This document shows, piece by piece, positions 13,436 through 63,948 of a stretch of 64,000 nucleotides of DNA. This DNA comes from an uncultured Gemmatimonadales bacterium (GTDB lineage Bacteria > Gemmatimonadota > Gemmatimonadetes > Gemmatimonadales > Gemmatimonadaceae): NCBI GenBank assembly GCA_963850905.1, contig CAWKMU010000003.1, forward strand, positions 1 to 64,000. Direction: 5' to 3'. Numbering within the stretch: position 1 is the stretch's first letter; the number at the start of each line of letters is the position of its first letter. The notes beneath the pieces were generated by a model. That model searched no databases, was not told where the DNA came from, and was given only the letters and a program-made list of their open reading frames with translations. The position numbers were made by a program, and so were the translations under genes.

Positions 13436-13754
13436 TCAGCCCCGCTCTGACGGACGGCGGCCAAGAAGGTGGAATCGCGGCAATTCCAAGGCGGAATCGC
13501 GGCAATCGCGCCCTCGCGCCGCGATGTCGAGGAGCGGGATAGACTCCAGCACACTCCCGAAGAAATTGCGCCGGCCCGTGACGGTGAATCGCCCGTTGCC
13601 CTCAGCGATATTGGCTGCGATTGAAAGGGCCGCGCGATTCGACTGATTGGCGAGGAAGTAGGCCCGCGGGAAGAGCCGGCTCGCCGCGCAAACGGTCTCT
13701 GCGAATCCGACGCTTTTTGTGGTGGACGAGGAGCGTCTCGAAGGCAAGCGGCAC
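13436..13754 (-). pseudogene. Four-helix-bundle protein (TIGR02436/Avd-like), frameshifted and truncated; copy 1
   Basis: LAFETLLV...FPRAYFLANQSNRAALSIAANIAEGNGRFT; homologous to the intact copy at 37208-37627. Confidence 0.85.
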
Positions 13755-13795
13755 GCGTCCACACTGGCCTCCGCCCGTCACCCGAGCGTCAGACC

Positions 13796-13940
13796 AGAAA
13801 GTAGAAACTAGAGAGTAGACCGAGTAGCGCGGCCCCGTGGCGCTCACTGCCATCGGGGCCGTTGGTTGTTGTTCGTCTACTTTCTACTTTCTGCTTCGCT
13901 ACTCTCTATTTTTCCCCGCTCCGCGGGGAAAAATGGGGCT
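13796..13940. repeat. Structured post-tRNA tail (heptamer inverted repeats, inner hairpin, terminator-like hairpin); tRNA fragment almost entirely lost
   Basis: CAGAAAGTAGAAACTAGA...TCTACTTTCTACTTTCTG, then ATTTTTCCCCGC-TCC-GCGGGGAAAAAT (13908-13934); near-identical to 63818-63948. Confidence 0.9.
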
Positions 13941-14038
13941 TCCGCGCACCAACTGTGTTGGACTGGGACGAGCGAATACAGAGGTAAGGGCGAGCGAACC
14001 ATCTGTTTATTGGAGGAAGCAGGCGAGTAACGGTCGTC

Positions 14039-14066
14039 TGTCGATTTCCCCGACCCTCGTTCGACG
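14039..14066 (+). promoter_or_regulatory. ECF-type promoter (ECF42-like) upstream of the YciI gene
   Basis: TGTCGA-N14-GTTCGACG; same motif and spacing at 16306-16333. Confidence 0.6.
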
Positions 14067-14124
14067 CCACTATACAGGGGTACTTCCGATCCCCGATTTC
14101 CGACCCTAGCTGAGGATCCGGACC

Positions 14125-14560
14125 ATGCGGTTCATGGCAATCCATTTTTTCACGCCGGCCGGCGAAGGCCGGCCCGATGCCGACGACCGAGCAAATGCAG
14201 ACAGGGGTGAACTTCCACGAAGAGCAGGTGAAAGCCCGAGTGCTGTTGCAGGCCGAGGGGCTGCACCCGAGCTCGAAGGGTGCGCGTGTGCGGCTCTCGG
14301 GGGAGAAGCGGACGGTCACCGACGGGCCGTTCACCGAGGCGAAGGAGCTCATCGGCGGGTTCTGGATTATTGAGGCCAAGTCAATGGAGGAGGCGATCGA
14401 GTGGGTCAAGCGCATTCCAAACCCGTGGCCGGAGGACACCGAGATCGAGGTCCGGCAGGTCGCCGAGCCCGAGGACGTGGAAGAGATGACGCCCGAACTT
14501 GTAGCGCAGATAGCGAGGCTGCACGGCGAGGCGCCGCTCGGTAGGGTGACGACACCCTGA
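14125..14560 (+). CDS. YciI/DGPF family protein, N-terminal frameshift
   Basis: GLHPSSKGARV...VTDGPFTEAKELIGGFWII...IEVRQV. Confidence 0.88.
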
Positions 14561-14736
14561 GCCTCAGCCAAAAATCACGGGACCAATCTGCGGGGAATCT
14601 CTACACGGCCGGGTACAATCGCGCGTACACGCCGACGGAGGATGTTTGGGTGGCGACGTTGCCGGTGGGGCACGCGGATGGATGGCCGAGGGTGGCGGCG
14701 AAGGGGGCGAAGGTTCGGATCAACGGGACATTGGGT

Positions 14737-16199
14737 GGATTCAATTGGTCGTCGCAACACTCTCACCGAGGAGGTTGCGATGACAGCACCGAGGCGACGG
14801 CGCTCGGATCGGTCTGGACGTGGCAAGCTGCATTCACTGGGCCGCCCGCCGGTCGGGCGGCGTGAGGACCGGCAGCGGTTCTGGGGCGCTATCGCCCGCG
14901 GCTGCTACTCCGAGACCGCGGTTGCCGATGCGCGAGTCTCGTGGGTGGTCGGGGCACGCTGGTTCCGACAAGCTGGAGGCATGCCGCCGTCACATCTCGC
15001 CCCATCCGCGTCGCCGCTGTCGGGGCGCTATCTATCCTTCGCCGAGCGCGAGCAGCTGGCGCTCCTCCACGCCCACCACTACGGCGTCCGCGAGATTGCC
15101 CGCCAGCTTGGGCGCGCGCCCTCGAGCATCTCGCGCGAGCTGCGCCGGAATGCGGCGACCCGTGGTGGCGCGCTCGACTACCGTGCGACCACGGCGCAGT
15201 GGCACGCCGACCGGGCGGGCCGCCGCCCGAAGCCGGCGAAGCTGGCGACAGACGCGCGGCTCCGGCAGTATGTGCAGGACCGCCTCGCGGGTGTGATCAC
15301 GGCGCCGGACGGCGCGGCGGCGCGCGGGCCGGCGGTGCCGTGGAGGGGCCGCAGGCACGGGCGTCGGCAGCACCGGCAATGGGGTCGCGCGTGGAGTCCG
15401 GCGCAGATCGCGCATCGGCTCCCCGTCGACTTCCCGGAGGATCCCACCATGCGCATCAGCCACGAAGCGATCTACCAGGCACTCTACGTCCAGGGCCGCG
15501 GCGCGCTCCGTCGCGAGCTGACCGCCTGCTTACGCACGGGCCGGGCGTTGCGCGTGCCGCGTGCCCGCACACGGGCCGCGGGCAGAGGCTTTGTCACGTC
15601 CGACCTGCTGATCAGCGCTCGACCAGCCGAGGCGGACGACCGCGCGGTGCCGGGGCACTGGGAGGGCGATCTGATCCTAGGCCTCGACAGCTCCGCCATC
15701 GGCACGTTGGTCGAGCGCACTACACGCTTCACGCTACTGCTCCACCTCCCGCGCATGCGGGGCCACGCGGCTGGCGCGCGCACGACCGACACAAAGAACG
15801 GGCCCGCGCTCGCCGGGCACGGTGCTCCGGCGGTGCGTGATGCGATCACGCGCGCGATCCAGACACTACCCGCCCAACTGCGGCGGTCGCTGACGTGGGA
15901 TCAAGGGGCAGAGATGGCACAGCACGCACAACTACGCGTTGATACGGGGCTCGCGGTCTACTTCTGCGATCCGCAGAGTCCCTGGCAGCGGGGGACGAAC
16001 GAGAATACGAACGGACTATTGCGGCAGTACTTCCCAAAGGGCACGGATCTGAGCGCGCACAACGCCCCTGATGTGGCTGCGGTCGCGCTCACGCTGAACA
16101 CGCGACCGCGCAAGACGCTCGGCTGGAGAACGCCTGCCGAAGCGCTGAACGAGCTGTTACTCTCACACACACAAACCGTTGCGACGACCGATTGACTCT
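14737..16199 (+). mobile_element. IS30-family insertion sequence
   Basis: Imperfect terminal inverted repeats GGATTCAATTGGTCGTCGCAAC (14737-14758) and GTTGCGACGACCGATTGACTCT (16178-16199) flank the transposase. Confidence 0.88.
14780..16195 (+). CDS. IS30-family transposase
   Basis: ISRELRRN HTH, WSPAQI, ISHEAIY, GHWEGDLI, LTWDQG, SPWQRGTNENTNGLLRQYFPKG and RPRKTLGW motifs. Confidence 0.95.
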   Translation: MTAPRRRRSDRSGRGKLHSLGRPPVGRREDRQRFWGAIARGCYSETAVADARVSWVVGARWFRQAGGMPPSHLAPSASPLSGRYLSFAEREQLALLHAHHYGVREIARQLGRAPSSISRELRRNAATRGGALDYRATTAQWHADRAGRRPKPAKLATDARLRQYVQDRLAGVITAPDGAAARGPAVPWRGRRHGRRQHRQWGRAWSPAQIAHRLPVDFPEDPTMRISHEAIYQALYVQGRGALRRELTACLRTGRALRVPRARTRAAGRGFVTSDLLISARPAEADDRAVPGHWEGDLILGLDSSAIGTLVERTTRFTLLLHLPRMRGHAAGARTTDTKNGPALAGHGAPAVRDAITRAIQTLPAQLRRSLTWDQGAEMAQHAQLRVDTGLAVYFCDPQSPWQRGTNENTNGLLRQYFPKGTDLSAHNAPDVAAVALTLNTRPRKTLGWRTPAEALNELLLSHTQTVATTD

Positions 16200-16305
16200 G
16201 GGTTGTATCCGGTGATCGCATCGGTGTCGGCGAGCCACACGACATTGCGATGCATCTCGGCGCGCTGTTGCCGAGGCGGGTGGTGTAAGGCGACGCGACG
16301 CCCGC

Positions 16306-16333
16306 TGTCGAGAATCCGGTGGCTGGTTCGACG
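16306..16333 (+). promoter_or_regulatory. ECF-type promoter (ECF42-like) upstream of the alpha/beta hydrolase
   Basis: TGTCGA-N14-GTTCGACG, as at 14039-14066. Confidence 0.55.
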
Positions 16334-16352
16334 TAATAGGGCATAGGCGACA

Positions 16353-17297
16353 ATGGCCTTTCCCGTTACCGCGAGGATCCCGACGATGATGTCCACGGCA
16401 AGATTGATAGCCACGTCCGCCGCAGGTCTGACCCTGGCGTCGGCGGGCCCAGCCACCCTTCACACACCCGCCCCGTCGAGTGCTGAATCGGGCTACGCGC
16501 CGGTGAACGGCCTTCAGCTCTACTACGAGATTCGCGGGACCGGGGCCCCAGTGGTCGTCCTGCACGGCGGCCTAAGCAACACGGAGTTGATTGCGGGCAT
16601 GATCACGCAGCTCGCGCGCACGCAGCGCGTGATCGCGGTTGACCTTCAGGGGCACGGTCGCACGGCGGATATCGATCGTCCGTTCACTTGCGAGGCGATG
16701 GCGGACGACATCGCTGGGCTGCTCCGCTATCTCAAGATCCCGAAGGCGGACATCGTGGGATACTCGCTCGGAGGGTCCGTCGCGCTGCGTACGGCGATTC
16801 AACACCCCGACATGATCGGCAAGCTCGTCGTGGTCTCGGCGGTGGTTCAGCCATCGGGCTGGTACCCGGAGCTGCACGCCGCAATGGAGCACGTGGGCGC
16901 CGGCATGGCCGACGCGATGAAGCCGAGCCCCGCGTACCAGACCTACGCCCGCATCGCTCCGCGTCCTGAAGATTGGCCGGTGTTACTCGACAAGACGGGG
17001 GCGCTGCTGAGGCAGGATTTCGATTGGACGCACGAGGTGAAATCGATCGCGGCGCCGACGTTGCTGGTCTTTGGCGACGCCGATGCGATACGGCCGGAGC
17101 ACATGGTGGAGTTCTTCCATCTGCTCGGTGGAGGCACCAAAGATGGCGGCCTGGACGGGTCCGGAATGTCAAAGGCTCGGCTGGCGATTCTGCCCGGCAC
17201 CACCCACTACACCATCTTTGATTCCCCGCTCCTCCCTCCCTTGATCGTGCGCTTCCTCGCCAGCGATGACTCCCGCATCCGACCCAACACGAACTAG
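16353..17297 (+). CDS. Alpha/beta hydrolase
   Basis: LHGG, DLQGHGRT, GYSLGG nucleophile elbow and GTTHY. Confidence 0.9.
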   Translation: MAFPVTARIPTMMSTARLIATSAAGLTLASAGPATLHTPAPSSAESGYAPVNGLQLYYEIRGTGAPVVVLHGGLSNTELIAGMITQLARTQRVIAVDLQGHGRTADIDRPFTCEAMADDIAGLLRYLKIPKADIVGYSLGGSVALRTAIQHPDMIGKLVVVSAVVQPSGWYPELHAAMEHVGAGMADAMKPSPAYQTYARIAPRPEDWPVLLDKTGALLRQDFDWTHEVKSIAAPTLLVFGDADAIRPEHMVEFFHLLGGGTKDGGLDGSGMSKARLAILPGTTHYTIFDSPLLPPLIVRFLASDDSRIRPNTN

Positions 17298-17362
17298 CGT
17301 CCTTCGTTTTTCACGTCGGCCAACACTGCGCGATCGTTGAACATTGCGCGAGACCCAGCAGC

Positions 17363-17467
17363 GCGGCCCCGTGGCGACTTACCGCCACGGGGCCGTTGTT
17401 GCTTCTCGTCTACTTTCTACTTTCTGTGTCGCTACTCTCTATTTTTGGCCGCTGTGCGGCCAAAAAT
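17363..17467. repeat. Structured post-tRNA tail, truncated before the four-helix-bundle gene
   Basis: CGGCCCCGTGGCG-ACTTAC-CGCCACGGGGCCG, TCTACTTTCTACTTTCTG and ATTTTTGGCCGC-TGT-GCGGCCAAAAAT. Confidence 0.88.
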
Positions 17468-17511
17468 GGGCCTGGGTAGAGTTGAACTACCGACCTCACG
17501 CTTATCAGGCG
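17467..17511 (-). tRNA. 3' half of tRNA-Ile(GAT), att-site scar 1 (not an intact tRNA)
   Basis: Reverse complement CGC-CTGATAA-GCGTG-AGGTC-GGTAG-TTCAACT-CTACC-CAGGCCC-A gives anticodon loop, T-arm and acceptor 3' strand; no D-arm or 5' half. Confidence 0.92.
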
Positions 17512-17613
17512 CGGGGTTCTCTGCCCTCTTGCCGGCAAGTTGCCGGCTTTCATAGTGACGGCCTGCATATCCGCCCGATCGTAGAGCGCCCGATGCCGGA
17601 ATATGCCGCCTCC

Positions 17614-17637
17614 AATTGGAACCTGAATTAGAACCAT
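17614..17637. repeat. Tandem 12-bp direct repeat (putative integrase arm site)
   Basis: AATTGGAACCTG/AATTAGAACCAT, 106 bp from the anticodon loop. Confidence 0.7.
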
Positions 17638-17778
17638 CTTGCGCACGGCCGGGGCTCTGACCACACGCGGTCCGGTAAATTCGCTGCTCAGTCGACTCGG
17701 CAGCCGGATCAACACTCAATGGTCGTGCGGTCCCGCCCGGTTCGCATCTGGAACACACGCCCCGATCCAGCGAAGGGA

Positions 17779-17982
17779 TCACCGGCCGCCGTGCCGCTCA
17801 CGACTCTTTATGACCGTCACAAGGGCGCGCAATGCTTCGTTAACAGCCTTCGAGTTCGGAAAGACCTCAGCCACATCGCGGTCGAGAACCACGATGTTGG
17901 TGCCCTCCGCGTACCGGGCCGCGTACTTGCCGCGTACGCCACCGGTGAAATCATATTCGTTTCGCATCTCGTCGTCTGACAT
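17779..17982 (-). CDS. BrnA-like antitoxin
   Basis: EMRNEYDFTGGVRGKYA...VVLDRDVAEVFPNSKAVNEALRAL, directly downstream of brnT. Confidence 0.82.
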   Translation of the reverse strand: MSDDEMRNEYDFTGGVRGKYAARYAEGTNIVVLDRDVAEVFPNSKAVNEALRALVTVIKSRERHGGR

Positions 17983-17997
17983 AGTCGCGGCGATCGG

Positions 17998-18282
17998 CTA
18001 GCGATCGCGTTCTTCGTGTTGTCGCCGCTCGCGCGGCGTCGCCGGCCGGGCCGATATGAGCCGAATCTCGTCGTTCTCATCCGCGTGGACCACCACTACC
18101 AGCCGCCCCCGTGCGGAGGACCCAAGCGTCAAGTACCGTGCCTCCCCTGTGGAGTGATGGGGGTCTCCAATCGTCACTGACAGCGGGTCACCAAACACCG
18201 TGACCGCTTCCGTGAAGTCTACCCCGTGTTTCCGAACGTTAGTATCGGCTTTATCGGGATCCCAAGTAAAAGAGAGGCCCAC
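17998..18282 (-). CDS. brnT: BrnT family toxin
   Basis: FTWDPDKADTNVRKHGVDFTEA...IRLISARPATPRER. Confidence 0.92.
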   Translation of the reverse strand: MGLSFTWDPDKADTNVRKHGVDFTEAVTVFGDPLSVTIGDPHHSTGEARYLTLGSSARGRLVVVVHADENDEIRLISARPATPRERRQHEERDR

Positions 18283-18444
18283 GCCTCAAATATACGCCAT
18301 GCGTGGAAACCCACGGCCGAGGCCCGAGTCGAGTGCCGGCGACGGTAGCCCAGTTCAGAGAGAAGATGGCCGGGTACCCCGGTGCCACGAGGAGGCGCCG
18401 GTCGCGACCAGTTGATCCAGTTGTGCCGCATTCTCCGGCGCCAC

Positions 18445-18745
18445 GCATCGGGATCGATATCTTCGACGCGCGCCGGCGACGTCAGCGCCAAGCCGAGGCG
18501 CTTCATGTAGTCCTTTTGCTGCGCGACCGCGTTCGCGTCGTTGTGGTTGTACGACAGCTGGAAACTCAATGGATCGACGGTCGGATTCACACCCCCAGGT
18601 GTTGCGATCGCCACTTTGAATCCGCCGTCCGTGAACTTGCGGTGTGGTGTCACGAATTCTTCCGACCAGAATCCCGTCGGATCGGCGTGGCATTCTTCAT
18701 CGTCCAAACACTCGCACCCGACAGCACCATAACGATTGACGACAT
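18445..18745 (-). pseudogene. DJ-1/PfpI (type 1 glutamine amidotransferase-like) N-terminal fragment
   Basis: PTGFWSEEFVTPH...IATPGGVNPTVDPLS; homology stops before the catalytic region. Confidence 0.7.
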
Positions 18746-19161
18746 TGCTCCTCGCCCTCCCGTTGGGTTGTTCGTCCCGCCACAGGCTGCCTCCCACCGC
18801 CGCGCCTTCCCCGTTAACCGCGCCTTTCTGGCGATCAGGACGACATCACCGACAGGCGCTGTATCCTCGACCGTCCGGCAAGACACAGTGCCTGCTCCAG
18901 TCTGACCGGGCCTCGTCCCTCACTGTTCGCCAGGTTATTCGAGAACCTCCGCACTCGGTAGACGATAAACCCGGAAATCAGCTTCCCGGATTTGAGTGAA
19001 CGAACGAGACCATACCCGAATGCTGTCGGAGTGGCTCGCTCATCCCATTCTTAGGAAACTGATTCCCAGAGTATCCGGGTACCTCGAGGTTTTGCAAAAC
19101 CCTACGTTGTCCCGCCATGGCGGCGCCTGGACCCGGTACTGAACGGTCATTGGAGGATGCG

Positions 19162-19577
19162 GTGAGTGACAGCCGAACCGTGAAGGACGAGGCCGACATT
19201 CGGAGCACGTTGGCGTCGTATAGTGACGCCCTCAACAGCAGCACGACGGCTGGGGTGCAGCCCCTGTACACCGACGACGGCGTGTTTATGCCGCCCTACA
19301 GCCCGTCGGCGGTCGGCAAGGCCGCTGTGGAGAAAGCCTACGATGCTGTCTCAACGAGTTGAAATTCCGCGTGAAGTTCACGATGGCGGAACTGGTCGTG
19401 ATGGCTCCGACTTGGGCGTACGTCCGAACGAATTCGGCGGGCACTACATGGCACCGTTCGACTGGTAGTACGACCTCCGAGGCGAACCAGGAGCTCTTCA
19501 TCTTCAAGAAAGGCGACGACGGCAAGTGGCGCATTGCACGGTACAGCTTCTCGCCGACGAACCCGCTGCCCAGGTGA
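19162..19577 (+). CDS. NTF2-like / SgcJ-EcaC (DUF4440) protein, frameshifted
   Basis: LYTDDGVFMPPYSPSAVG and EANQELFIFKK...WRIARYSFS; GGAGG RBS upstream. Confidence 0.78.
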
Positions 19578-19608
19578 GACTCCGCCGTTCGTCTACGTTT
19601 GCTTGCGG

Positions 19609-20967
19609 TCACGAGCGACCCGTACGCTGGCGGCGCCCAACGTCAAGGGCTGATGTCTGTCCAGGGCCCGAGTCTGGCGGCCCCTGCTCCTTCAGCAACT
19701 GCGCGACGACTCGGTCTTCATCCTCGTACGCTCCCTCGCCGAAGTGATGGAACCTGATGCGTCCATTTCGGTCGGCGATGTACACGCTCGGCCAGTATTC
19801 GTTGTTGAAGGCGCGCCAGATGGCGTAGTTGGCGTCGAGCGCGACAGGGTACGTCACGCCGAGCCGCCGGACGGCGGCCGCCACGTTCTCCGGCACGCGT
19901 TCCGGCGCCAGTTCCGGCGTGTGGACGCCGACAACGACGACATCCTGGCCCTTGTACTTGGCCGCAAGCGCCTTGATATGCGGTAACGCGTTGAGGCAGT
20001 TGTAACACTCGAACGTCCAGACGTTCACGACCACGACCTTCCCTCGCCGTTGATCAGGCGACAGCGCCCGGCCATCGCCACTGGTGTTGAGCCATCCCGT
20101 CGCACCATCGAACGACGGTAAGGGACCTTCGTCCGGCCTTGGGACCGGAGCGGGGGCGGCTGAGTTGCCGACGAAGTGCATCACGGTGGCCTGCCGGTGC
20201 GGGACGAGGCGAGCCAGCAGGACCTCCTCCGCGCCAGCCGTCTGGGCGATGCCGTGCGACGCAAAGAGACGCGCATCCCACCCGATCGCAATGACCAGCG
20301 CCGTAGCGATCGCGGCCGCGCCGAGGATCCGCCGGGCCCACACATCTACCAGATGCCCCCCAATCCGGCGGAGCGCACGCAACACACGGCCGCCAGCAGC
20401 CAGCCCGCCGGCCAGCGCCAAGGCAGCTCCTGCGCCGAACGTCGCGAACAATGACGCGGCAAGCACCGGCCGCGCGCCGGCTGCGGCGGCGCCAGCAACG
20501 AGTCCGAGAATGGGCCCCGCACATGGTGCCCAGAGCAGTCCAGTGGCAACGCCGAGCACGAACGAGCGCCCCGGTGCGGCGCCCGGGGTCGAGTCGGTGG
20601 CTGGCTGGCCAGCGCGCCGCGTCCCGTCCGCTCCGCCATGCGACAGACGAGCGCCGAGACGAACCAGCGGATTCGTGACCCAGCTCGCCAACCGCGGAGA
20701 GAGGAGGCTCACTCCCGCGAGGCTGAGCACGACGAGAGCGGCAATCCGTCCGACGCTAGAAGCCGCGGCCACCTCAGCCGCGCCTGCCGTGCCGACCATC
20801 GCCACCGCGACGAACGCGAGGACAAGACCGCCCAAGAGCGGCAGGGTCTCGCGGGCGAAGGGTCGTCCACTCCGCGCAAACACGAACGGAAGCACAGGCA
20901 GGATACAAGGGCTGGCGATGGTCAACAGCCCGCCCGCGAACACCGCGAGGTAGAGCAGGGCGATCAT
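19609..20967 (-). CDS. dipZ: DipZ-like CcdA-thioredoxin fusion
   Basis: SPCILPVLP and LLWAPCAGPILG in the TM domain; WTFECYNC, GVHTPE and NEYWP in the thioredoxin domain. Confidence 0.85.
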   Translation of the reverse strand: MIALLYLAVFAGGLLTIASPCILPVLPFVFARSGRPFARETLPLLGGLVLAFVAVAMVGTAGAAEVAAASSVGRIAALVVLSLAGVSLLSPRLASWVTNPLVRLGARLSHGGADGTRRAGQPATDSTPGAAPGRSFVLGVATGLLWAPCAGPILGLVAGAAAAGARPVLAASLFATFGAGAALALAGGLAAGGRVLRALRRIGGHLVDVWARRILGAAAIATALVIAIGWDARLFASHGIAQTAGAEEVLLARLVPHRQATVMHFVGNSAAPAPVPRPDEGPLPSFDGATGWLNTSGDGRALSPDQRRGKVVVVNVWTFECYNCLNALPHIKALAAKYKGQDVVVVGVHTPELAPERVPENVAAAVRRLGVTYPVALDANYAIWRAFNNEYWPSVYIADRNGRIRFHHFGEGAYEDEDRVVAQLLKEQGPPDSGPGQTSALDVGRRQRTGRS

Positions 20968-21037
20968 GACACAATTCTCCGGCAGAGGAAGACCCTGCGC
21001 ACGCGTATAGTTGCAGGCTGCAAACCCCAGTCGCGGC

Positions 21038-21325
21038 TCATCGGCGGCTCCAGCCTGCGCTGACGAGTGCCTCGAGGACGCGTGCGCGCAAGGCGATCGC
21101 ATCTTCGTGCTCGCGGCGCAACGCCCGAAGGCGGTCGATCAGTGCGCGCTCGAACCGCTCATGTTCGCGGCAATACACACACTGGGCGAGGTGCGCGTCG
21201 ATGGCCGCCATCGTCGGGGCATCGAGCGTCCGATCCAGATAGTCCCAAAGCGCGCGAACGGCGTGCTCGCAATCGACAGGCATGTCAATGGTATCTGGCG
21301 GCACCTTGGAATCCCAATCAATCAT
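21038..21325 (-). CDS. Zinc-finger (ZAS, zf-HC2) anti-sigma factor
   Basis: C...LWDYLD...HLAQCVYC (HxxxCxxC), coupled to the ECF sigma gene. Confidence 0.88.
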   Translation of the reverse strand: MIDWDSKVPPDTIDMPVDCEHAVRALWDYLDRTLDAPTMAAIDAHLAQCVYCREHERFERALIDRLRALRREHEDAIALRARVLEALVSAGWSRR

Positions 21326-21917
21326 GGGTGGCTCCTCGTCCAAAGGTGTTTTGCCCGATCCCCGCATCGCGCGCGTGGGCGATCAGGGCGCCTTGCACGG
21401 CACGCCGAGCGCGGAACAAACGCGATCGAACGGTCCCAATGGGGACGCCCAGCACCGCGCCAACCTCCTCGTAGGTCTGGCCCTCAATGTCGATCAAGAC
21501 CAGCACGCTGCGATGGGGTTCCGGCAACTCGTCGACGGCCCGCAGGATCGCGGGTCGCACGTCGATCTCGTCGAACAGATTGCCAAGTCCATCGCGCATC
21601 GCCCGAATGTGAGACATCACTGCCGGCACCGCGTCGACGTCAGCCTCGTCGCTTTCGACGAACGGCGCCCGTTTGCGGCGCGATTTCACGAACGTGTTCC
21701 GGCAAATCGTGAACAGCCAACGTCGCGGGTCACTGCCCCGGAGGAACGTGTCCCAGTAGCGAAACGCCCGCAGGTAGGTCTCCTGAACGAGATCATCGGC
21801 GTCGGCCCGGCTGCGCGTGAGCGAGAGAGCGAACCGCGCGACGTCCGCGAGACATGGCAGCGCCAAAAGCTCGAACTCTCGCGACCGCGCCTCCGAATCA
21901 TCGCCCTGCTCACTCAC
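21318..21917 (-). CDS. ECF RNA polymerase sigma factor (SigH/SigR-like)
   Basis: DADDLVQETYLRA, WLFTICRN and GVPIGTVRSRLFRAR motifs. Confidence 0.92.
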   Translation of the reverse strand: MSEQGDDSEARSREFELLALPCLADVARFALSLTRSRADADDLVQETYLRAFRYWDTFLRGSDPRRWLFTICRNTFVKSRRKRAPFVESDEADVDAVPAVMSHIRAMRDGLGNLFDEIDVRPAILRAVDELPEPHRSVLVLIDIEGQTYEEVGAVLGVPIGTVRSRLFRARRAVQGALIAHARDAGIGQNTFGRGATHD

Positions 21918-21937
21918 GTTTCTTACCCCTTGCTCGC

Positions 21938-22564: not shown

Positions 22565-22606
22565 GGAGGGACCAATAGAAGGGATGAGGTGAGAACTACG
22601 GTGAGA

Positions 22607-23320: not shown

Positions 23321-23389
23321 GAGTGACTCGCGTTATGAGGCCGAGCCCGGACGGCGGTGACCGCTCGCCCAGGGTAAGGGACGTGCGGC

Positions 23390-23612
23390 GACATGTAGTC
23401 CGCCCCTGGGATGAGAGTTCCATCACGGAGCGTGTTGACAACCTGACAACCACGCCCGGCAATCGTGACCATCTTTTGGCCGAGTTCGAGATCGGGACTG
23501 TCGGCGAACACTCGAGCGTAAATGCGACGACCCGCTCGGGCGTGCCGTCCATCGTCCCGCTCACTTCGACCCGGACGTTGGTCATTGCCGCGATGCGAGA
23601 GCGGGTTCCGCG
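23390..23612 (-). pseudogene. OsmC-family C-terminal fragment, paralog of 30512-30952
   Basis: MTNVRVEVSGTMDGTPER...VTIAGRGCQVVNTL, close to the intact copy; N-terminal part replaced by the SDR gene. Confidence 0.75.
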
Positions 23613-55169: not shown

Positions 55170-55218
55170 CGCGCTGTACTCCGGTCTCGGTTGGTTCCCC
55201 CCTGTAGCTGCGCGACCT

Positions 55219-56439
55219 TCACTCGGCCCAGATCATCGGGCTCTTGATCCTGCTGCTCAACAGCATCTCGGTGTCGGCGTCGTACGTATACTCCTCCCTC
55301 AGGTCATCATTGATGAAGACCCGCAAGACGCCGCTTTTTGTGTCGTCTCGCGCATAGACACGGCGAGCGTGTGGATATTTGTCGCATGAGACGTTGACAC
55401 CGGAGTCAAACCCCTTCCCGATCGGCGTCAGGCGACACGTCTTCTCGAGCGTGCCGATGACGAACACTCCGTCGGGCGTGATCATGTCCGTGTACAGAAC
55501 TCCGCTGCCATCCGGGAACAGCGTCTGGTGCGTTTCGCCGGGCTTATAGTCAACGACCTTCAATGTCACGTCATCCGCAACCGTGTCATTTGCCAGGAGC
55601 CCATCGGGCCGAATATAGAAATGCGCCGTCTCACGGCTCTTGGGGCGCTGACTCCACACGACGAATATGTGCCAGTGGGGCGGTGCGTCCTCATGGGCAA
55701 CGGCCGGACCTTGCGTGGGAAAATTGGTGTCGAACCCCATCACGCGAATGGTACCGATCCCCTGCTCGTCAACGCGTCGATCGAGACCCAAGGCCCGAAT
55801 CGCCTCGCGGGCTGCGAACTCCAGATTGAGAGCCGCCTGATGCTCGACCTCAGGCCATGGTCCAGTCGCGTAGCGCCCACGTCTGCGCTCAATGTCCGCA
55901 TGTTCAATGCGGATTTGTACCCCCGGCGTTTCAATGTAGGTGTACGTTTCCGTCGCGTCGTCACTGTCGTACCACGGCAACGCCTCTAACGCAGGGTCTA
56001 CGAGCGGCGCGTCGAACTTGATCCCGTCCGCCACCCGTACGAAAGGCACACGGCTACGGCCAACGACAACGGCCCGCACCTGGGACGGGTCGACTTTGAT
56101 CTTGACTCCGACCACGGACTGCAGCGTGGTTGGTGCGCGAAAGTGAAAGTAGAACTCCTTGGAATCCTGCCCATCCGTAAAGCGATTCGAGATCAGCCCA
56201 CACGTCGTACACGACGTTGGAAACACGACGGACCACCTCACTGAATCTGCTTTGACCTTCAAGACGCGCACGCTGAGAAAACCTGGCAACACGTACCACT
56301 CGGCAAGAAAGCCGGGCGGGATCTGAAACCCCTCCTGCTCCAATGCCACTTGTGCTGCGAGCGGGTGTGCGCGTCCTACCAACATGGCGCCCACTGTCAC
56401 AACCGTGGCAAGGGACCTCACTCCGAGCAAACCCTTCAT
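55219..56439 (-). CDS. Secreted hypothetical protein
   Basis: 406-aa ORF with signal peptide and HEDAPPHWH His-rich motif; in operon with SusD. Confidence 0.7.
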   Translation of the reverse strand: MKGLLGVRSLATVVTVGAMLVGRAHPLAAQVALEQEGFQIPPGFLAEWYVLPGFLSVRVLKVKADSVRWSVVFPTSCTTCGLISNRFTDGQDSKEFYFHFRAPTTLQSVVGVKIKVDPSQVRAVVVGRSRVPFVRVADGIKFDAPLVDPALEALPWYDSDDATETYTYIETPGVQIRIEHADIERRRGRYATGPWPEVEHQAALNLEFAAREAIRALGLDRRVDEQGIGTIRVMGFDTNFPTQGPAVAHEDAPPHWHIFVVWSQRPKSRETAHFYIRPDGLLANDTVADDVTLKVVDYKPGETHQTLFPDGSGVLYTDMITPDGVFVIGTLEKTCRLTPIGKGFDSGVNVSCDKYPHARRVYARDDTKSGVLRVFINDDLREEYTYDADTEMLLSSRIKSPMIWAE

Positions 56440-56459
56440 TAGTCACCTCGTGTACCGCG

Positions 56460-58039
56460 TTACGGGCAAGTCAACGTCCAGACCCCACCCCGACTCTGTA
56501 TCTCGGATACCGGCACCGGCGCCACTGTCGTGTGGTAGTCGACCCCCGCCGTGCCGGCTACAGCCTGAATAGCAGCGACCGCGAGCGCGTCGGGCCCCGC
56601 CGTCGCCGCCCAAGTGGTATCACTCACCGCCGCCATTCCCCACATGCGAATGGCAATGAGGTGGTCGGCGCTGCCTTCGAGCACGGTGGAGATCCGGAGT
56701 TCCTTCATCAACGTGTCGCGCACCGCCGTGTAGCCCGGCGCGATCGTCAGAGCGGGCAAGCCGCCTGCTTGCTGGTGCACGGTGTTGATGAGCGTGATCG
56801 CGCCCGCGTAGTCCCCGAGCCCGAGGTGAATCTCAGCGCGGACCAGCGCTAATTCCTCCGCGCGCGTAACCGGCACCGGGCCATTCACGGTCGCGGCAGG
56901 CAGATAGCTCACGTCTACGCCCGCCGCTGAGTACTCCGGTAGCTGCAACGGCAGTGGGTTTGGAACAAACTTGTTCTTCCAGCGCAAATCGGCTGCCGAA
57001 TCAACGTCGGCCAACAGATCCTGCATCGGTGCGGTCTGACCATAGTACTGGTTCATCGGATTCGCGTAATCACCCGACTGCCCGCTGTACGTCTCGTACG
57101 CGCCGTATGGATCGAGCGCGAAGGGGCCAGGGACGGGCGGTGCAATGGCGGCGAGATTGTACAGCGCTGAGGCGGCCAGCGCGCTGTCGGCGCGCGTGAG
57201 AGCCGAGGCGTCCGGTGCCCCAGGGGAGCTCGGAGTCGGACTCGTCCCCGGCGTGCTGCGGGCAATGGCATAGGCGAATTCGAGCCCCGCCTTCCCCGCC
57301 AAGGCTCGGTTGAATGCTGCAAAGGCGCCCGGGGTTGTGCTCGGTGCTGCGGTCGCCCCAACCGAGGCGAAGCCCGCCGGCAATATCACCGGCAGCGGGA
57401 TGGCTCCCGCGGTGTTGAGGTCGACAAGTCCCGAGTCGAGAACGGCGACAATGTATTTCCAGACGTCCTTATTGCAGTAGGGCGGGCTTGTGATACCGTC
57501 GTGGATGGCATAGATCGGGACTCCGAGCGTATCAGTCAGCTCAGCCACCCACATGAAGTTCAGCGCCTTGATTGTTTGCGCGATGCCCGCGACCGCGAAT
57601 GCCTGCGCCGGCGTATAGGCAGCCACCTGGGGCAGGATTGCGAGAAGCTGGTTGGCCTGCAGCGCGTATTGAAACGGAGGCGACCACCCCGCGTTGTCAT
57701 ACGGCAACATCGGCGTCTCTCCGCTATAGTGGGTGACCAGCGGAGGCTGCGACGAGAGAAACAGCACTGCGTCGCGCGAAAACGCATTCACCATCCCCAG
57801 GAAGTAACCGTTGGTCTGCTCGGTGCGCATTCCGCCGAACAACCCGGTGATGGCATTTTGCACCCCTGTCGGGCTGTTCGGTATGCTCGTCGGCGCCGTG
57901 AAGTACGGCACGCGTGACTCACCGCACGCCGAAGTCGAGAGATGAATGTGAGGCCAGCAATCAGCGCAGGCCTGTAGCAGCGGCGTGTTGCGCCCCGAGG
58001 CGACGCGGCTCGCTCGTCGATCGAGAACGAGGGAATCAT
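56460..58039 (-). CDS. RagB/SusD-like lipoprotein, frameshift in the signal region
   Basis: Lipobox TSAC just upstream of ORF 57911; RAEELALVRAEI...AITLINTV...ELRISTVLEG. Confidence 0.8.
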
Positions 58040-58040
58040 G

Positions 58041-61000
58041 TCAAAAGCCCAGATCAAGGGAAAGGAAATAACTGCGCGCAGGCGGGTAAGGCGTGATCTG
58101 AAAGCCGCGCTCCACATCCTCGCTTTGGAACCAGGTCGCCGCCGGGTCCATGCCCGTGTAACCTGACGAGTACGAGTGCAGGAGATTCCGACCGGTGAGG
58201 TTGAGCCGTGCGCTCGCGATGCGCCCGCCGAGCGCGCGACTGATCCAGCGGGCCGGAACCGTGTAGCTTAGCGCAACCTCCCGGAGCCAGATCGTACTCG
58301 CTGGCTCTACAAACGGCGTGAGGTTCTGCACGGCCTGCTGGACACGTTTCGCCTCCAGAGCGGTATCGGCCAGCAGGAAGGGACCGTAGTCGAAGTAGTA
58401 GTTCGTGAGGTTGCTGATACTCGCACCCCGCTGCCACTCGACCAGGCCAGAGAGGCGGAACCCGCCGTAGCTAATCGAGTTATTGAAGGTCATGACATAG
58501 GACGGCTGGCCGTCGCCGACCTGCTTGGGCATGCCGTCCGAGGTCAGGACTGCCGTATTCACTATGTCCGAAACGGACCGTCCCACCTGGATCCAGTATT
58601 CCCCGTACGGGCCACCGAATTCCTCGTACCCTGGGGTGAATGGCCCGACTGGCAACGCATTCACGACGCTGTAGTTGCGATAGAACGTCGTCGTCGTGAG
58701 CCACGTCAGCCCTTGCGGCGTCTGCACAGGTGTGGCCGAGAGCGATAGCTCAATTCCCTGGTTCGTGAATTCGCCACCGTTCGACCAGTCGCTCGTGTAT
58801 CCGAGCGACGCGGGCACACCCGCCTGAAGCAGTAGATTCGTGATGCGCTTTTGATACACGGTCGCGCTGAGCTGTGCTCGCGATCGAAACATCGTCCCGT
58901 CAACGCCCATCTCGATTTCCGCCTCCGACTCAGGCTTGATGGTTGGATCGCCCAGCGTGGTCGTGTTCGTGATCCCGGGCAGCCCACTCGCGATGAGTGT
59001 CGTGAGAGGCGTGTACTGGACGCCGTAATTGGGTTGCGTCCCCGATTGCCCGTACGCGGCCCGCAGCTTGAGCTCGTCCAAAAAGCCCACAAACTGTGGG
59101 ACGCGATACGACGCCGAGTACCGCGGGTAGGCGTAGAATTTGTTGAAGTTGCCGTCGTTCGACGTGCGCTCCGCCGTGACCCCGGCCGTCACGGCCAAGC
59201 GGTCCGACAGCGTGATGACTTGCTCCTGCGCGTACCACGACTGATCGTGTTGCGCCGACTTGGAGAAGAAATTGCTCTGCACCGCCCCGATCGCTGGCAA
59301 TGCCGCGCCTGCGATCAGCTGTTGCGAGACGCTGGACGGGTTGATCAGCTGTCAATGTTCGTCGCCAAATCCCACCAATGTCGTAAAGTCCAGCTGCGAC
59401 AGTCCTGTGTAGTGGTGGATAACGTTCAGCGAGAGGTTCGAGTACGAGGTGTTCGCTTCTGCGGTCGTCGCGACCCCTGGCAGTGACGTCGCCTGCTCGA
59501 CCTGCAGAGCCGGCGGCGCATAGAGATCGTCGTGTTGATCGGTGTAGTCCGCTCCGCCAAGGACGTTGACGCGAAGGCTCTGATGCTCCGTGCTCCAGGC
59601 CGTCCAGTTGATGTTGCCGCCGCCAATGAAGCGGTTTACAGTCTCCGGCGTTTGGACCTCGGCGGCGTCCGCGAACGGATTCGCGGGGCCAAACGGGTTA
59701 ACCGGCCAGAGACCGTCCGCATGCTGCTGATCCAGCGTCACGAACTGCGGCGTGTACGCAAACGCGTTGTACGGGGCGATGCCGATATTGTCGTTCCCAC
59801 TGATCCCGCGCCGGGTGAGCGAGTGCGCGTATGTGAGATTCGCCGAGACCGAGAGGGTGCTGAAGAGCTGCTGCGTGACGTTCGCGCGGACGGTGCTTTT
59901 TTGGTACCCGGTGTTCGTCTGAATCCCGTTGTCGTACTTGGCGAGCCCCGACACGAAATACTGGGTCTGCGCCAGCGCCCCGCTCAAGCTGATGTCCGTT
60001 TCGTACGCGGCCTGCGGATTGCTGAACAGCTGGCTCTGGTAGTCCTGCGGACCCGAGTAGACCGACGCGATCTTGGATTCGCCATACCCGAGCGGTGCCC
60101 CCCAATCCTGTGCACTCGCGAGCGTCGGGAACTGTCGAAGAGCTAAAGTCTGCGCATCGGTGAAGTGGCCGACCGTTTGCGAGATCAACCACGAGGGCTT
60201 GCCGGCGGTCCCATGCTTCGTCGTGATGATGATCACCCCCAATGACGCCTTGGACCCGTAGATCGCCGACGCCGACGCGCCCTTCAAGACCTCGACCGAC
60301 TCAATGTCGTCCGGGTTGAGGTCAGCAATGCGGTTGGTGCCGTTGTCGACCTCGTTGGGCTGCAGGACTCCGCCCGCAGTAATGGCACTCTCGCCGGAGT
60401 AGGCCGTCTGGTTGTTCACGATCACCCCGTCGACGACGTAGAGCGGTGTCGCCGCCGCGTTGATGGACGTGATCCCCCTGATCTGCACGTAGAGCCCCCC
60501 ACCGGGGGCCCCGCTGTTGTTCGTCTCGATCACTGCGCCGGGCACCTGGCCTTGCAGCGAGTTCTCGATAGTCGGCGCTGGCACAGCCGTGATGTTCTGC
60601 GCGGGGACGACCGCGACGTCGTTCGCGGCGTTCTGAGACGACACAGTTGTCGCCACCCCCGTGACCACCTGCGCCTCGAGGCGAAGGACGTCCTGCCGCA
60701 GCGCGACGGTGTAGTCCATCTGTCCCGCGACGATCGGCACGATCTGGGCGAGATAACCAATGCGACGCACCGTCAGTGATTTCGCACCCGTGGGAAGCCG
60801 GAAACTGAACGTTCCGCTGTCCGTGGTGTTTTGTCCTGTCGTGGTGCCTGTTACCACAACGGACGCAGCGGCCACGGGCTGCTTACTGCCGGCGTCGAGC
60901 ACTCGCCCCGTAACCCGCGAGTCTTGACGGTGCGTGCTGGTGTGTTCGTCGATACGCGGTGGTCGCCCAACCAGCACGGCATCACCGCGAATCGAGACGT

Positions 61001-61370
61001 ATGCTGGGAGTCCGGTGCCCTCGAGCACGATCGCCAAGGCGTTGGCAACACTCACGTTTGCCACGTGGAGCGAGACATGCGCTCGCGACGCCAGCACGTC
61101 TGGCCCCAACTGGATTGCGACACCTGCGGCTTCGCCGACTGCGAGCAGGGCGTCTTTGAGCGAGGAAACGCGAAGGTCGAGCGAGACCGACTCCCGAAGG
61201 ATCGCAGCGGCGCTGTTGGTCGTCCGCACCCACGTGTCCTGCCGTGTATCGGGGGGAGTGTTTGCGGCGAGCGCGTTCGAGTCAGGCGTTCGCGTCGGCT
61301 CCTGAGCTGCGATCCGAGCGGCGAACATCGCGAGAGCGAATGCGAATCGAGGTACAATTGTCACGGTCAT
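58041..61370 (-). CDS. SusC/RagA-like TonB-dependent receptor with N-terminal signalling extension, frameshifted near 59350
   Basis: PLYVVDGV, ADLNPDDIESVEVLKGASASAIYGSKAS.GVIIITTK; C-terminal YPPARSYFLSLDLGF. Confidence 0.9.
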
Positions 61371-61408
61371 TGGATGTTCCGCCGAACACAAGAGGACGCG
61401 AGCAGAGC

Positions 61409-62481
61409 TCACGATCGCGGGATGGCATGGAAGGTCACTGTTCGGCCAGTACGCTCGTAGCGCGTGCCAGTGAGCAACACGAGTGCGTCGAGCACTTCGG
61501 TGCTGCTCTGGGAGCCGAATGTGACTGTCAGCAGTTGACGTCCGAGCGCGGGATCCGCGAGCTGTATGTCGAGATCCCACCAGCGACCGATCAATGCACT
61601 GACCTCGCTGAAGGGCACTGAGTCGAAGGCGAGACGTCCTTCCGTCCAGCCAATTGCTGCAGCGGATTTCACTCCGTGCCGGAGCGCAGCCAACTGACCT
61701 GACGTATCGATCAGCGCGAGATCGTTTGCTTGTAATTCGACCTGGGCGACGTTGACCTTGCCTTCGGAAACGACCACCTGCCTCCGCGTCGCGCCGCCAT
61801 AGGCCGTAACGGCGAACCGCGTCCCGATATCGCGGATAGTGAGGTGGCCGGCATGGACTGCGAAGGGACGGGCCGCGTCATGTCGGACCACAAAGTACGC
61901 TTCGCCGTCGAGGTAAACATCGCGTGTCGGCTCGCCGTAATCGTCGGGAATGCGAAGGCTTGTAGCGGCGCCCAACACGATCTGCGTTCCATCATCCAGT
62001 TGGAGATTGGCGCGTTGCGCCGGGCGGGTCGAGAATTCTCGCGCGCCCCGAGGCGACGCGGGGTGCGGCTGTCGAATCCGACCAATCGCGATGCCCCCGT
62101 CACACCCAGGACTGCGAGCACGAACGCAGCCGCGGCCGCTGCGGGAAACCGGATCAGCGCTGTCCTCCAGGAGTCCCGACGCTCGCCCCGAACCACCAAC
62201 AGGGCTTTGCGGCGCTCACTCGAAGCAATGACCCGCCCCTCGACATCGCGGCCTTCTCTCGCCGCGGCAGTCAGTCGCGCACTCAGTCGGACCCATGCCG
62301 TCTCAGGATCTGTCATGCGCGACCGCGACTCGAGGGCGCGCGCAAGTTTGCGAAGCAATGCCAGTTCTGCAGCACGATCCGGTCGAGCCGCCAGCCAGCG
62401 CTCCACCTCGGCGCGCTCGGCTGGGGAGCACGCTCCGGTAATGTGGCGAGCCAGCAAATGATGATCGGACGAATCGTGCAT
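61409..62481 (-). CDS. FecR-family anti-sigma/signal transducer, frameshifted near 62030
   Basis: ERAEVERWL, a TM segment, R.VYLDGEAYFVV.HD..RPF.V...IGTRFAV and WTEGRLAF. Confidence 0.87.
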
Positions 62482-62577
62482 CGGGTGCCTGGCGCTCGGG
62501 TCAGCGAGTTTCCGCTATTTCAATGCGGAACCTCCGGCAAAACCCAACGTCCCTTTCCAAGCGCGGTGCTAACCGAC

Positions 62578-63261
62578 TCAGAAGAACTTCTCGAGTTCTC
62601 GGCGAATGGCCCTGAGGCCGAGCATGATCTCCCGCTCGACATACTTGACGGACGTTCCCATTGTTCGCGCGACCTCGGCGTTCGCGAGGTGGTACTCCCA
62701 GCGCAACGTCACCGCCAGGCGCCGACGCTCCGGCAGGTGCCCTAATGCCGCATGCAGCGCTGCGGTCACCTCGTTCCGACGACAGGCTTCGTCGGTGGGC
62801 TCGGGGCCTTGCCCCATGCCAGTACGTTCCACGCCGCCGCTGGCAGCCGCCTCCCATCTACTCGCGACGCGGTCATGCCGCCGACGTCCGGACAGGTAGT
62901 TGCGTACCGCCACGACCAGATACGCTTGGATACTGCCGCGCAGCTTCCACCGAGGACCAAGCGCCCAAATGTTGTACATCACGTCTTGTACGCATTCGTC
63001 CGCGAGATCCTTGTCCTGCGTCAGTGCCACTACGTAGGCGTGTAGCTCGACGTAGTACACGTCGAACATGGTCTTGAACGCTCCGGCATCCCCTGCGCGA
63101 ATGCGCGCGGCCATCGCCGCATCGGCCGTCGGTGGTGACAGCTCGTCCAGCCGGTCGCGACGCACTGAACTCGGCACCTGCATCGGGCCGGCCAGCGAAA
63201 GCCCTGGGGCGGGATCCGCCATCGAACTGACGACCTGGAGGTCCGCAGCTGGATCGGTCAT
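62578..63261 (-). CDS. ECF sigma factor (FecI-like)
   Basis: GDAGAF...ADECVQDV...YLVVAVRN...LPERRRLAVTLRW...EVARTMG.S. Confidence 0.9.
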   Translation of the reverse strand: MTDPAADLQVVSSMADPAPGLSLAGPMQVPSSVRRDRLDELSPPTADAAMAARIRAGDAGAFKTMFDVYYVELHAYVVALTQDKDLADECVQDVMYNIWALGPRWKLRGSIQAYLVVAVRNYLSGRRRHDRVASRWEAAASGGVERTGMGQGPEPTDEACRRNEVTAALHAALGHLPERRRLAVTLRWEYHLANAEVARTMGTSVKYVEREIMLGLRAIRRELEKFF

Positions 63262-63684
63262 GGGCCGTCACGATTATGCCCACGTTTGCTGACGCGCAAG
63301 GCACCTTACCGATCGCTCTCTGGTCGACAACTATAGGGCGCGTCGAAAGAATCGACCGACACGTGACCAAGTTGTGACCACCGGAGAAACGCCCGGCCGC
63401 CTGCGGCGATCATCAACGCACAAGGAATGGCTGCTCATCCCTAGGCTCGTCGCTACAGATCGAGCAAGGGCTCGACGAGAATCAATGCCACGATCGCGAA
63501 CTCGAGGAGCTCCGCGCGGGGTGCTTAGGCTTCGCTGTTCAGCATGCGCACATCTCACGGAGGTTGGGAGCTTGCGGTCAGTGCCGCGACGCAACTCCTG
63601 GCGCCCGAAAGAGACTCGACCCCGCGGGTTGCCGGTCAGGAACTGGCCGACGACAGAGCCGGCACAAGTCGACCATCGCTGCAG

Positions 63685-63777
63685 CCCCGCGGCAAGCGCC
63701 GCCTCGCCGCGCACACAGCGTCGGCCAGTCCCACACTCTTCTGGTACCACGAGAAGCTTCTCGAACGCAAACGCCAT
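63685..63777 (-). pseudogene. Four-helix-bundle protein, N-terminal stub; copy 5
   Basis: MAFAFEKLLV / YQKSVGLADAVCAARRRLPRG. Confidence 0.8.
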
Positions 63778-63817
63778 GCGTCTATGCTGCCCGATCGGCG
63801 TCGGCAGACCGTCAGGG

Positions 63818-63948
63818 CAGAAAGTAGAAAGTAGAGGGAGTAGCACGGCCCCGTGGCGCTCACTGCCATCGGGGCCGCTGTTGCTGTTCGTCTACTTTCT
63901 ACTTTCTGTTTCGCTACCCTCTATTTTCCCCGCTCCGCGGGGAAAAAT
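63818..63948. repeat. Structured post-tRNA tail, T/A type
   Basis: Perfect 18-bp inverted repeat CAGAAAGTAGAAAGTAGA (63818-63835) / TCTACTTTCTACTTTCTG (63891-63908); TTTTCCCCGC-TCC-GCGGGGAAAA hairpin. Confidence 0.9.

Follow-up and report, generated by a model that had tools for sequence, protein, structure and literature searches.

We analyzed a 64,000-nt stretch of DNA from an uncultured Gemmatimonadales bacterium (the window: positions 1-64000 of contig C3 in genome G000), in which a short module follows duplicated 3' ends of a transfer RNA (tRNA) gene. We found that this tail is a cassette, composed of a perfect hairpin, a bulged stem, heptamer arms, and a gene of the PF05635 family, that directly abuts the final base of tRNA genes, an arrangement seen in at least two bacterial phyla. 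The window itself is the inner part of an additive tandem tRNA-Ile island; the one element of it that has an integrase is the newest and lies beyond the window. We think it probable, though well short of assured, that two layers are superimposed here: a selfish cassette living at tRNA ends and an additive tRNA-Ile island growing by accretion. By our analysis, the tail should be counted neither as a hallmark of the island nor as ordinary flanking host DNA. A preliminary description, made from the letters of the window, had offered those two choices and missed the nature of the tail as a cross-phylum cassette anchored at tRNA 3' ends. G000 is a metagenome-assembled genome of 82% completeness whose close relatives are titled Gemmatimonadales; below, G001 to G009 are comparison genomes and L numbers are sampled loci.

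Anchoring at tRNA genes was observed in a sample of 160 loci, the best 80 of 248 metagenome loci and the best 80 of 140 genome loci, which holds near-duplicates and four loci of the genus of G000. The encoded proteins are 57 to 93% identical to the query, come mostly from Planctomycetota where titled, and form a clade apart from distant paralogues (support 94, quick tree). At 106 of the 160 loci, an intact tRNA or transfer-messenger RNA (tmRNA) gene lies no more than 320 nt upstream on the same strand; in contrast, a tRNA is found within 500 nt downstream at 1 of 139 loci. These 106 comprise 76 Pro (all three anticodons), 9 tmRNA, 7 Ala, 4 Arg, 3 Glu, 3 Gln, 2 Met, 1 Ile, and 1 Ser, and altogether 14 tRNA or tmRNA types carry the cassette. 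The other 54 loci include 24 with an upstream exact match, at least 13 nt long, to a tRNA 3' end, 3 tandem second copies, and 12 that sit on too short a flank. None of 15 distant paralogues has a tRNA in 1.5 kb, and most lie, as judged by eye, between mirror-image heptamer runs. One sampled cassette (L163) sits within an array of 17 tRNA genes, behind tRNA-Pro(TGG).

The start of the cassette is set by the tRNA end. A perfect stem (hairpin 1 in Table 1) stands there in 97 of 100 distinct loci; its first base is the discriminator, N73, in 76 of them and N72 in 12. An A at N73 is paired with T (87 loci) and a G with C (2 loci), an encoded CCA is mirrored, and AGA comes next in 80. As a control, we found such a stem at 2 of 47 tRNA genes of G000, both of which bear the module. 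Hairpin 1 had been described as a terminator, but a T run precedes and an A run follows its stem and the terminator scan did not call it; we rejected an intrinsic terminator, in which a U run would follow a GC stem.

The second structure, stem A, covaries: pairing was 0.90 between true partners and 0.53 between shuffled ones (62 distinct sets, 0 of 2000 shuffles, kinship uncontrolled). G-T and A-C pairs were equally rare, at 7 and 7 of 516 with the best-matching register chosen, and of 62 triloops, 23 have the sequence GNA and 9 its complement (32 in all). GNA triloops are stable in DNA. Thus, the equal rarity of the two pairs and the GNA loops fit a DNA hairpin better than an RNA one. We also considered, and rejected, a switch or pseudoknot involving helices A and B, as only helix A covaries clearly. 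No Rfam family reached its gathering score in the window or L002, and at E ≤ 1 six loci gave only tRNAs and chance matches. The exact module pattern had no match in a genome-contig collection that possibly does not include near genomes. In 17 of 142 loci, the gene is followed directly by a second module arm. At L066, L213, and L301 we observed a second cassette subtype with other heptamers in the same layout; in L301 the gene is flanked on either side by a module copy, and each copy is preceded by a 7-nt remnant ending in CCA.

The protein of the full-length cassette in the window matches PF05635 (E 3.7e-25) and TIGR02436 (88 bits against a cut-off of 24). Members of the very large PF05635 family are known from rRNA insertions, and the family fold is that of the retroelement protein Avd. 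The predicted structure has four helices (pLDDT, a per-residue confidence measure, 91.8) and aligns with Xcc0516 (2GSC) and BT_0352 (2RLD), which are also sequence hits, at a template modeling (TM) score of 0.82 to 0.84. Likeness of the model to Avd itself is weaker (TM 0.78 to 4DWL, 8% identity). The 2GSC and 2RLD structures have five chains each, and by analogy the cassette protein might be a pentamer that recognizes the cassette hairpins. The gene is under purifying selection, with a ratio of nonsynonymous to synonymous divergence (dN/dS) of 0.03 to 0.17 in seven of eight pairs; the closest pair gave 0.51. Of 61 related genomes, 49 contain homologues, those above 60% identity being confined to the genus of G000. 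In IMG/VR, eight pattern matches to the clade yielded no confirmed relative.

Evidence on the movement of the cassette comes from the protein tree (quick and FastTree trees; the counts leave out outgroups, one frameshifted row, and two truncated rows). Module type changes 32 times on the tree, compared with 59 when shuffled, and the amino-acid type of the tRNA changes 14 times, compared with 26. The anticodon of tRNA-Pro changes 26 times against 29.6, which is nearly random (22 of 300 shuffles as low). Because module type follows the protein tree, gene and module travel together, and near-free swapping among tRNAs with like 3' ends is what would be expected if the tRNA end guides insertion. 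In the window, the copies, truncated ones included, have dN/dS of 0.12 to 0.16 at synonymous divergence (dS) of 0.35 to 1.1. Thus, they diverged under purifying selection before truncation and come from different donor lineages. The 37.8-kb copy differs from that of G002 by a dS of 0.046 although the core DNA of these genomes is 70 to 82% alike, which indicates recent transfer. Neighboring tails are not the most alike; the 63.9- and 46.6-kb copies are 74% identical.

A donor origin for the tails, there directly behind an intact tRNA, had been proposed and stands: the G002 cassette, 94% identical to the 37.8-kb copy, is so placed. Among the comparison genomes, intact tRNA-Ile is followed by the module and the intact gene in G002 and by the module in G003 and G007; neither follows it in G001, G004, G005, G006, G008, and G009. 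The absence from the last four of these, clade-profile matches in 4 of 301 genomes of the phylum, and relatives mostly in Planctomycetota leave unsupported the suggestion that the tail is ordinary native chromosome. Behind tRNA-Pro(GGG), the module is present in G000, G002, and G004 and absent in G001, G006, G007, G008, and G009. The tRNA-Ile genes of G005 and G007 differ in T-stem sequence and orientation, with flanking genes common to both, and G007 has a tRNA-Ile of the G000 type with the module and a peroxiredoxin-like gene.

The second layer is the island. An ARAGORN scan found no tRNA in the window; the sole tRNA-Ile(GAT) gene of G000 lies intact on the minus strand 9 kb past the window end, at C3 72745-72818. 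Its 45-base 3' part, the attachment (att) core, is repeated at 17466, 35207, 37806, 41260, 46624, 52320, and 63947, and an eighth core copy, with a seventh tail, is on contig C4 at 712908 (712.9 kb). Between the window and the intact gene lies an element with a tyrosine-recombinase-like open reading frame (ORF; C3 71384-72646), a weak match to PF00589 (E 2e-4, under the cut-off). The element is flanked on both sides by the same short repeats (64099, 72653, and 72664), and C3 64649-65053 within it (L001:2650-3051) weakly matches rolling-circle replication initiators. We found no further copies of this integrase, or of two G004 integrases, in G000. Paired short direct repeats of several unrelated types, putative integrase arm sites, stand 100 to 130 nt upstream of every inner core; the commonest type was found in 3 of 201 family genomes, with no intact integrase alongside. 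The cargo between cores includes redox, toxin-antitoxin, ABC permease, SusC/D-like, and IS30 genes. The window and its flank thus show partial tRNA duplicates dividing variable cargo, an intact tRNA, and an integrase element flanked on each side by arm repeats, as an additive island should.

Table 1. Features of the cassette, its truncated copies, and the tRNA-Ile island (window coordinates unless a contig is named)
Feature	Position	Strand	Remarks
Full-length cassette	37208..37807	-	Hairpin 1, stem A, heptamer arms, TGACG repeats, PF05635 gene
Hairpin 1	37781-37807	-	12-bp perfect stem, 3-nt loop; starts at tRNA discriminator A
Stem A	bulge 37695-37696	-	2-nt GG bulge
Heptamer arms	to ~37669	-	
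TGACG repeats	37664, 37653	-	Two
PF05635 gene	37208-37627	-	In the full-length cassette
att core	37806..37850	-	45-bp duplicate of tRNA-Ile(GAT) 3' half
Core and tail	46200..46668	-	Core 46624-46668; gene cut after ~82 codons
Core and tail	34797..35251	-	Core 35207-35251; gene cut after 77 codons, fused to 3' fragment of another gene
Core and 118-nt tail	17350..17510	-	Core 17466-17510
Tail	13514..13939	-	No core, ~5 bases like tRNA end; frameshifted gene fragment, internally deleted
Core and 265-nt tail	63683..63989	-	Core 63947-63989 is attR (right attachment site) of C3 63990-72744 element
Core, tail absent	41260..41304	-	
Core, tail absent	52320..52364	-	
Arm-type direct repeats	37953-37974		37.8-kb core
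Arm-type repeats	46761-46782		46.6-kb core; differ from others
Arm-type repeats	35355-35376		35.2-kb core
Arm-type repeats	17614-17635		17.4-kb core
Arm-type repeats	41407-41428		41260 core
Arm-type repeats	52468-52489		52320 core
Arm-type sequence	33879..33994	-	Commonest kind; own core deleted
Additive tRNA-Ile island array	13514..63989		Integrase-less cargo blocks separate cores
Integrase element	C3 63990-72744		attR-bounded; between intact tRNA-Ile and window

The six minus-strand tails are homologous from the tRNA end over about 420 nt (13.9 kb), 118 nt (17.4 kb), 410 to 430 nt (35.2 kb), full length (37.8 kb), 420 nt (46.6 kb), and 265 nt (63.9 kb). These lengths agree with the preliminary description, as do the absence of a tail behind the cores at 41260 and 52320 and the divergence of the copies (74 to 91% identity to the 37.8-kb copy). 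That the tails are not assembly duplicates was also borne out: short-read contigs from two other studies show zero differences over 46120-46583 and 35222-37251. They cross the 46.2-kb break and the 35222-37251 interval, and therefore those joints are not assembly artefacts; one of the two runs bridging the joints may be the source sample. Credible core-core joints were absent from short-read contigs, which drop rare variants. A tRNA end was said to head each tail, which is true of the other copies but not of the 13.9-kb copy, where about five bases match and the 45-bp core is missing. Three breakpoints were also placed in the ECV-PLLE-IAAR stretch of the protein; three of five fall within 30 nt, which is not significant against a uniform expectation (P ~0.10).

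The ragged tail ends have the appearance of deletions. The expectation of one site-specific and one ragged end holds only in part, because the left end can vary: one flank with a YCII gene joins three different tails at three different points (13.9 kb, C4 712.9 kb, and C2 of G001). What had looked like a fifth arm type, upstream of the tails at 13.9 kb and on C4, proved to be this same flank. Compared with the tail that heads the same cargo in G001, the 17.4-kb tail has undergone further deletion, and thus at least one truncation is secondary. Hairpin 1 is kept in every tail-bearing core, the shortest tail being about 70 nt, and the module at 35.2 kb is a chimera of T-type and G-type subtypes. 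Tails were present on 12 of 16 core fragments counted. The proposal that makes the gene a hallmark of integrating elements is not supported, as all four integrase-followed cores are tail-less and 1 of 89 ORFs behind intact tRNA-tail loci is an integrase fragment.

Tails at many non-tRNA loci would have marked an independent repeat, and here the answer is divided: the gene is confined to tails within G000, but a gene-less module is found at at least 10 further, non-Ile places, behind stop codons and behind tRNA-Pro. One such module is flanked by genes that we take, from their sequence, to be ychF and rpsF. At the three gene-less sites tested, relatives have no module or a different heptamer palindrome. 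The ychF-rpsF site and one upstream of eno (L225, L226, and relatives) hold different heptamer-palindrome families per species, or none. G000 has 332 heptamer arm motifs genome-wide, and such arms lie no more than 80 nt from the 3' end of 8 of its 48 tRNA and tmRNA genes (Gly, three Pro, two Leu, SeC, and Trp).

Core-tail arrays of the same design are present in G001 and G004, at tRNA-Pro in G002, and in small form at L152, L155, L195, and L213. In a complete Pirellulaceae genome, tRNA-Pro is followed by a tail, 41 kb, a core and tail, 7.5 kb, and another core and tail; the three genes are intact and 92 to 95% alike (92, 94.5, and 93%), and no integrase was found among 22 ORFs scanned. Duplication is also seen with no cargo. 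At tRNA-Pro(TGG) in G000 (C3:3134850-3135230, outside the window; L293), a gene-less module is followed by a 27-nt duplicate of the tRNA's own 3' end and a second, different module, and G004 has the same cargo-free layout with two near-identical modules. Duplicates of a tRNA 3' end, 11 to 42 nt long, occur at 6 of 106 other loci. In Planctomycetota, a conserved A-rich motif with GTTCAA in it precedes short 3' remnants of tRNA-Pro or tRNA-Ala (L168, L169, L211, L213, L218, L219, L221, L223, and L287) and is probably the attR arm of one integrase family.

Several other repeats were observed in and around the window. A degenerate 3' half of tRNA-Pro(GGG) with no tail lies at 6995-7040 (minus strand), an att remnant of a different tRNA within the Ile island. 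A perfect 12-bp hairpin at 41172-41199 (minus strand) stands about 60 nt behind a tail-less core, with 10 nt of the tRNA-Ile core repeated in its 3' arm. An IS30-family element at 14730-16205 has three C4 copies more than 99.8% identical, and the C4 terminus is a 92% copy of window 13708-14733.

We suggest that the two layers interact as follows. The cassette would live harmlessly at a tRNA or tmRNA 3' end, its single gene, of 120 aa, probably read from the tRNA promoter. Together with a short tRNA 3' piece, it may spread among tRNA loci, strains, and phyla by recombination at the common end, either driven by homology or aided by the tRNA-targeting integrases of passing islands. Its structures are most likely DNA hairpins recognized by the putative pentameric protein or by a host enzyme, which is the weakest step of this account. 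An island integrating at a cassette-bearing tRNA leaves arm, core, and tail at its far end, as junctions in the window show. A new cassette, or a donor block headed by one, could then arrive behind the restored tRNA, and once the new tail is in place, the integrase end of the resident island may be lost. Deletions would erode the dispensable gene from the right, sparing hairpin 1, and tails may also recombine with one another. Repeated rounds would give units of core, ragged tail, cargo, and arm, the newest adjoining the tRNA.

A number of observations weigh against this two-layer account. In 15 of the 160 loci, no clear tRNA end was found by the strict test, and in G006 and G009 the gene lies behind protein genes. 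The heptamer arms are complementary, but their pairing hardly exceeds that of shuffled arms (12.95 versus 12.73, 26 of 500), and template-switch mutation can produce perfect stems without selection. The protein tree rests on 120 columns and has many open forks. No clean pair of empty and filled tRNA sites was found, the unit ends being undefined, and no conserved right end of the cassette is visible. The intermediate that the account predicts, in which an intact integrase arm follows an intact tail, was not found; there was one fragment, in a jumbled locus, among the 89 of 178 candidate ORFs scanned, and none in the Pirellulaceae array. As for enzymes that might act on the cassette, five genomes of the genus, 67 to 98% complete, gave no reverse transcriptase (PF00078), and three of the five have matches to an IS200-type transposase (PF01797), not beside the arrays.

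A bolder form of the account, to which we give only tentative weight and which is somewhat unlikely, is that the cassette represents a new minimal element class: a one-gene cassette whose putatively pentameric, Avd-like protein recognizes its own hairpins, drives insertion exactly at the discriminator of tRNA and tmRNA genes with no encoded integrase, transposase, or reverse transcriptase, and, once lodged between att core and neighboring arm, holds resident islands fast as a ratchet for their growth.

The alternative that survives best, though we consider it unlikely, is passive capture. The gene would be a resident host gene for tRNA 3' processing or termination, carried along by islands through imprecise excision (specialized transduction) or through illegitimate recombination anchored by homology, with the far end of the captured piece appearing as the ragged end. 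Such capture is proposed in the available text of the tycheposon preprint (10.1101/2020.12.28.424599), and it would sit well with the intact tRNA and tail in G002, G003, and G007, the donor origin of the tails, the strong purifying selection on the gene, and the lack of a 13-nt tRNA duplicate at 51 of 55 loci with at least 3 kb downstream. However, a resident gene should not be distributed so patchily across phyla, hop among tRNA loci, occur as polymorphic gene-less copies at non-tRNA sites, or form cargo-free duplicates. Later deletion accounts for at least one truncation (17.4 kb versus G001), and the ragged end expected beside the displaced core is in fact separated from it by cargo and arm.

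We also asked whether the tail could be the left arm of integrase-less elements with the order core, tail, cargo, arm, the module standing in for the missing arm, the protein serving as an accessory recombination factor, and the integrase acting in trans. Most units ending in the commonest arm type do start with a tail and none contains an integrase, intact genes head the units of the Pirellulaceae array, and bulged stems resemble attC sites. An essential left arm is nonetheless hard to reconcile with loss of the gene in five of the six window copies, with several unrelated arm types at unit ends and two tail-less units, and with the many tRNA-tail loci, most of them, that have ordinary neighbors and no downstream duplicate. 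We regard this explanation as quite doubtful.

The tails could instead have arisen by duplication within the genome, through abortive excision or replication slippage between cores, with template switching perfecting the hairpins and neither selection nor transfer involved. The near-identical tandem core and module at tRNA-Pro(TGG) of G004, the frequent tandem second arms, and the chimeric tail at 35.2 kb are what such a process would leave, and the cargo-free duplicates may have formed in this way. As the whole story it is largely refuted and very improbable, for adjacent tails are not the most similar, the copies diverged under purifying selection, and the 37.8-kb copy is closest to that of another species. 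An assembly artefact, which the 82% completeness of the genome and the 92% copy of window 13.7-14.7 kb at the end of C4 might suggest, has a negligible chance of explaining the arrays, since independent contigs bridge two joints (refuting it for those tested) and the same arrays occur in other genomes.

The clade offers a single-base landmark, a covarying structure beside a gene, and natural arrays, and thus its binding and movement could be tested with one 550-bp construct. Should the cassette insert itself at tRNA ends, no site-specific insertion system of its kind would be smaller; should it ground islands, it would explain the fixation of integrase-less cargo. We found no published description of a four-helix-bundle cassette anchored at tRNA ends in the literature searched, which lacked most subscription journals and supplements, and a selfish element riding on tRNA ends is apparently undescribed.

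We compared the cassette with known systems as given in the available parts of the cited sources. Its position behind tRNA ends and an ORF outside the stems led us to reject a 23S rRNA intervening sequence (IVS), although IVSs (Coxiella S23p, PMC4990558; candidate phyla radiation [CPR], 10.1101/2024.02.27.582315) encode the same protein family, are horizontally acquired, and form a discarded part of a stable-RNA transcript. An rRNA IVS carries its gene within a stem inside the rRNA and is excised by RNase III, whereas the cassette ORF is downstream of the structures and behind a tRNA. A diversity-generating retroelement (DGR) was rejected because template and variable repeat are lacking and the five genus genomes scanned gave no reverse transcriptase. 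DGRs (PMC3240598; 10.1101/2023.10.23.563531) share the Avd-like fold and a GC-rich DNA hairpin in which stem structure outweighs sequence, but the BPP-1 loop is a 4-nt GRNA and the cassette loop is mostly 3 nt. An integron cassette array was also rejected, since the blocks are multigene, in both orientations, and bounded by tRNA cores, with no Rfam or NCBIfam integron call above cut-off. Compared with MITEs (miniature transposable elements bounded by inverted repeats) and repetitive extragenic palindromic (REP) sequences, the cassette has one fixed end only.

Closer parallels exist for each layer. Tycheposon islands (10.1101/2020.12.28.424599) and the ssrA islands and cis-mobilizable elements of Dehalococcoides (PMC3146451) consist of tandem units with partial tRNA copies, the newest by the gene and many integrase-less; no repeated post-core cassette is described in the parts available. 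Heptamer repeats of Xanthomonas and Nostoc (PMC4692102) and of Beggiatoaceae (PMC4679880) are intergenic mirror-image 7-base repeats shortly behind gene ends, variable between close relatives. A term search of the available text gave no link to a four-helix-bundle gene or a tRNA end, and in the cassette the repeats come after a fixed hairpin and a bulged stem. The tRNA-linked repeats (TLRs) of Escherichia coli (PMC8144298), compared by description only, lie in tRNA operons at one to five per locus, bounded by an 18- to 19-bp duplicate of the tRNA 3' end, a layout shared by the cargo-free tRNA-Pro(TGG) duplicates with their 27-nt tRNA 3' ends. TLRs are noncoding and from E. coli, and the available description mentions no discriminator hairpin, heptamer arms, PF05635 gene, or cross-phylum spread. 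The cassette works like a tRNA-linked repeat that carries an IVS-type gene, inside an ordinary additive island, and so connects tRNA-linked repeats, intergenic heptamer palindromes, and island accretion.

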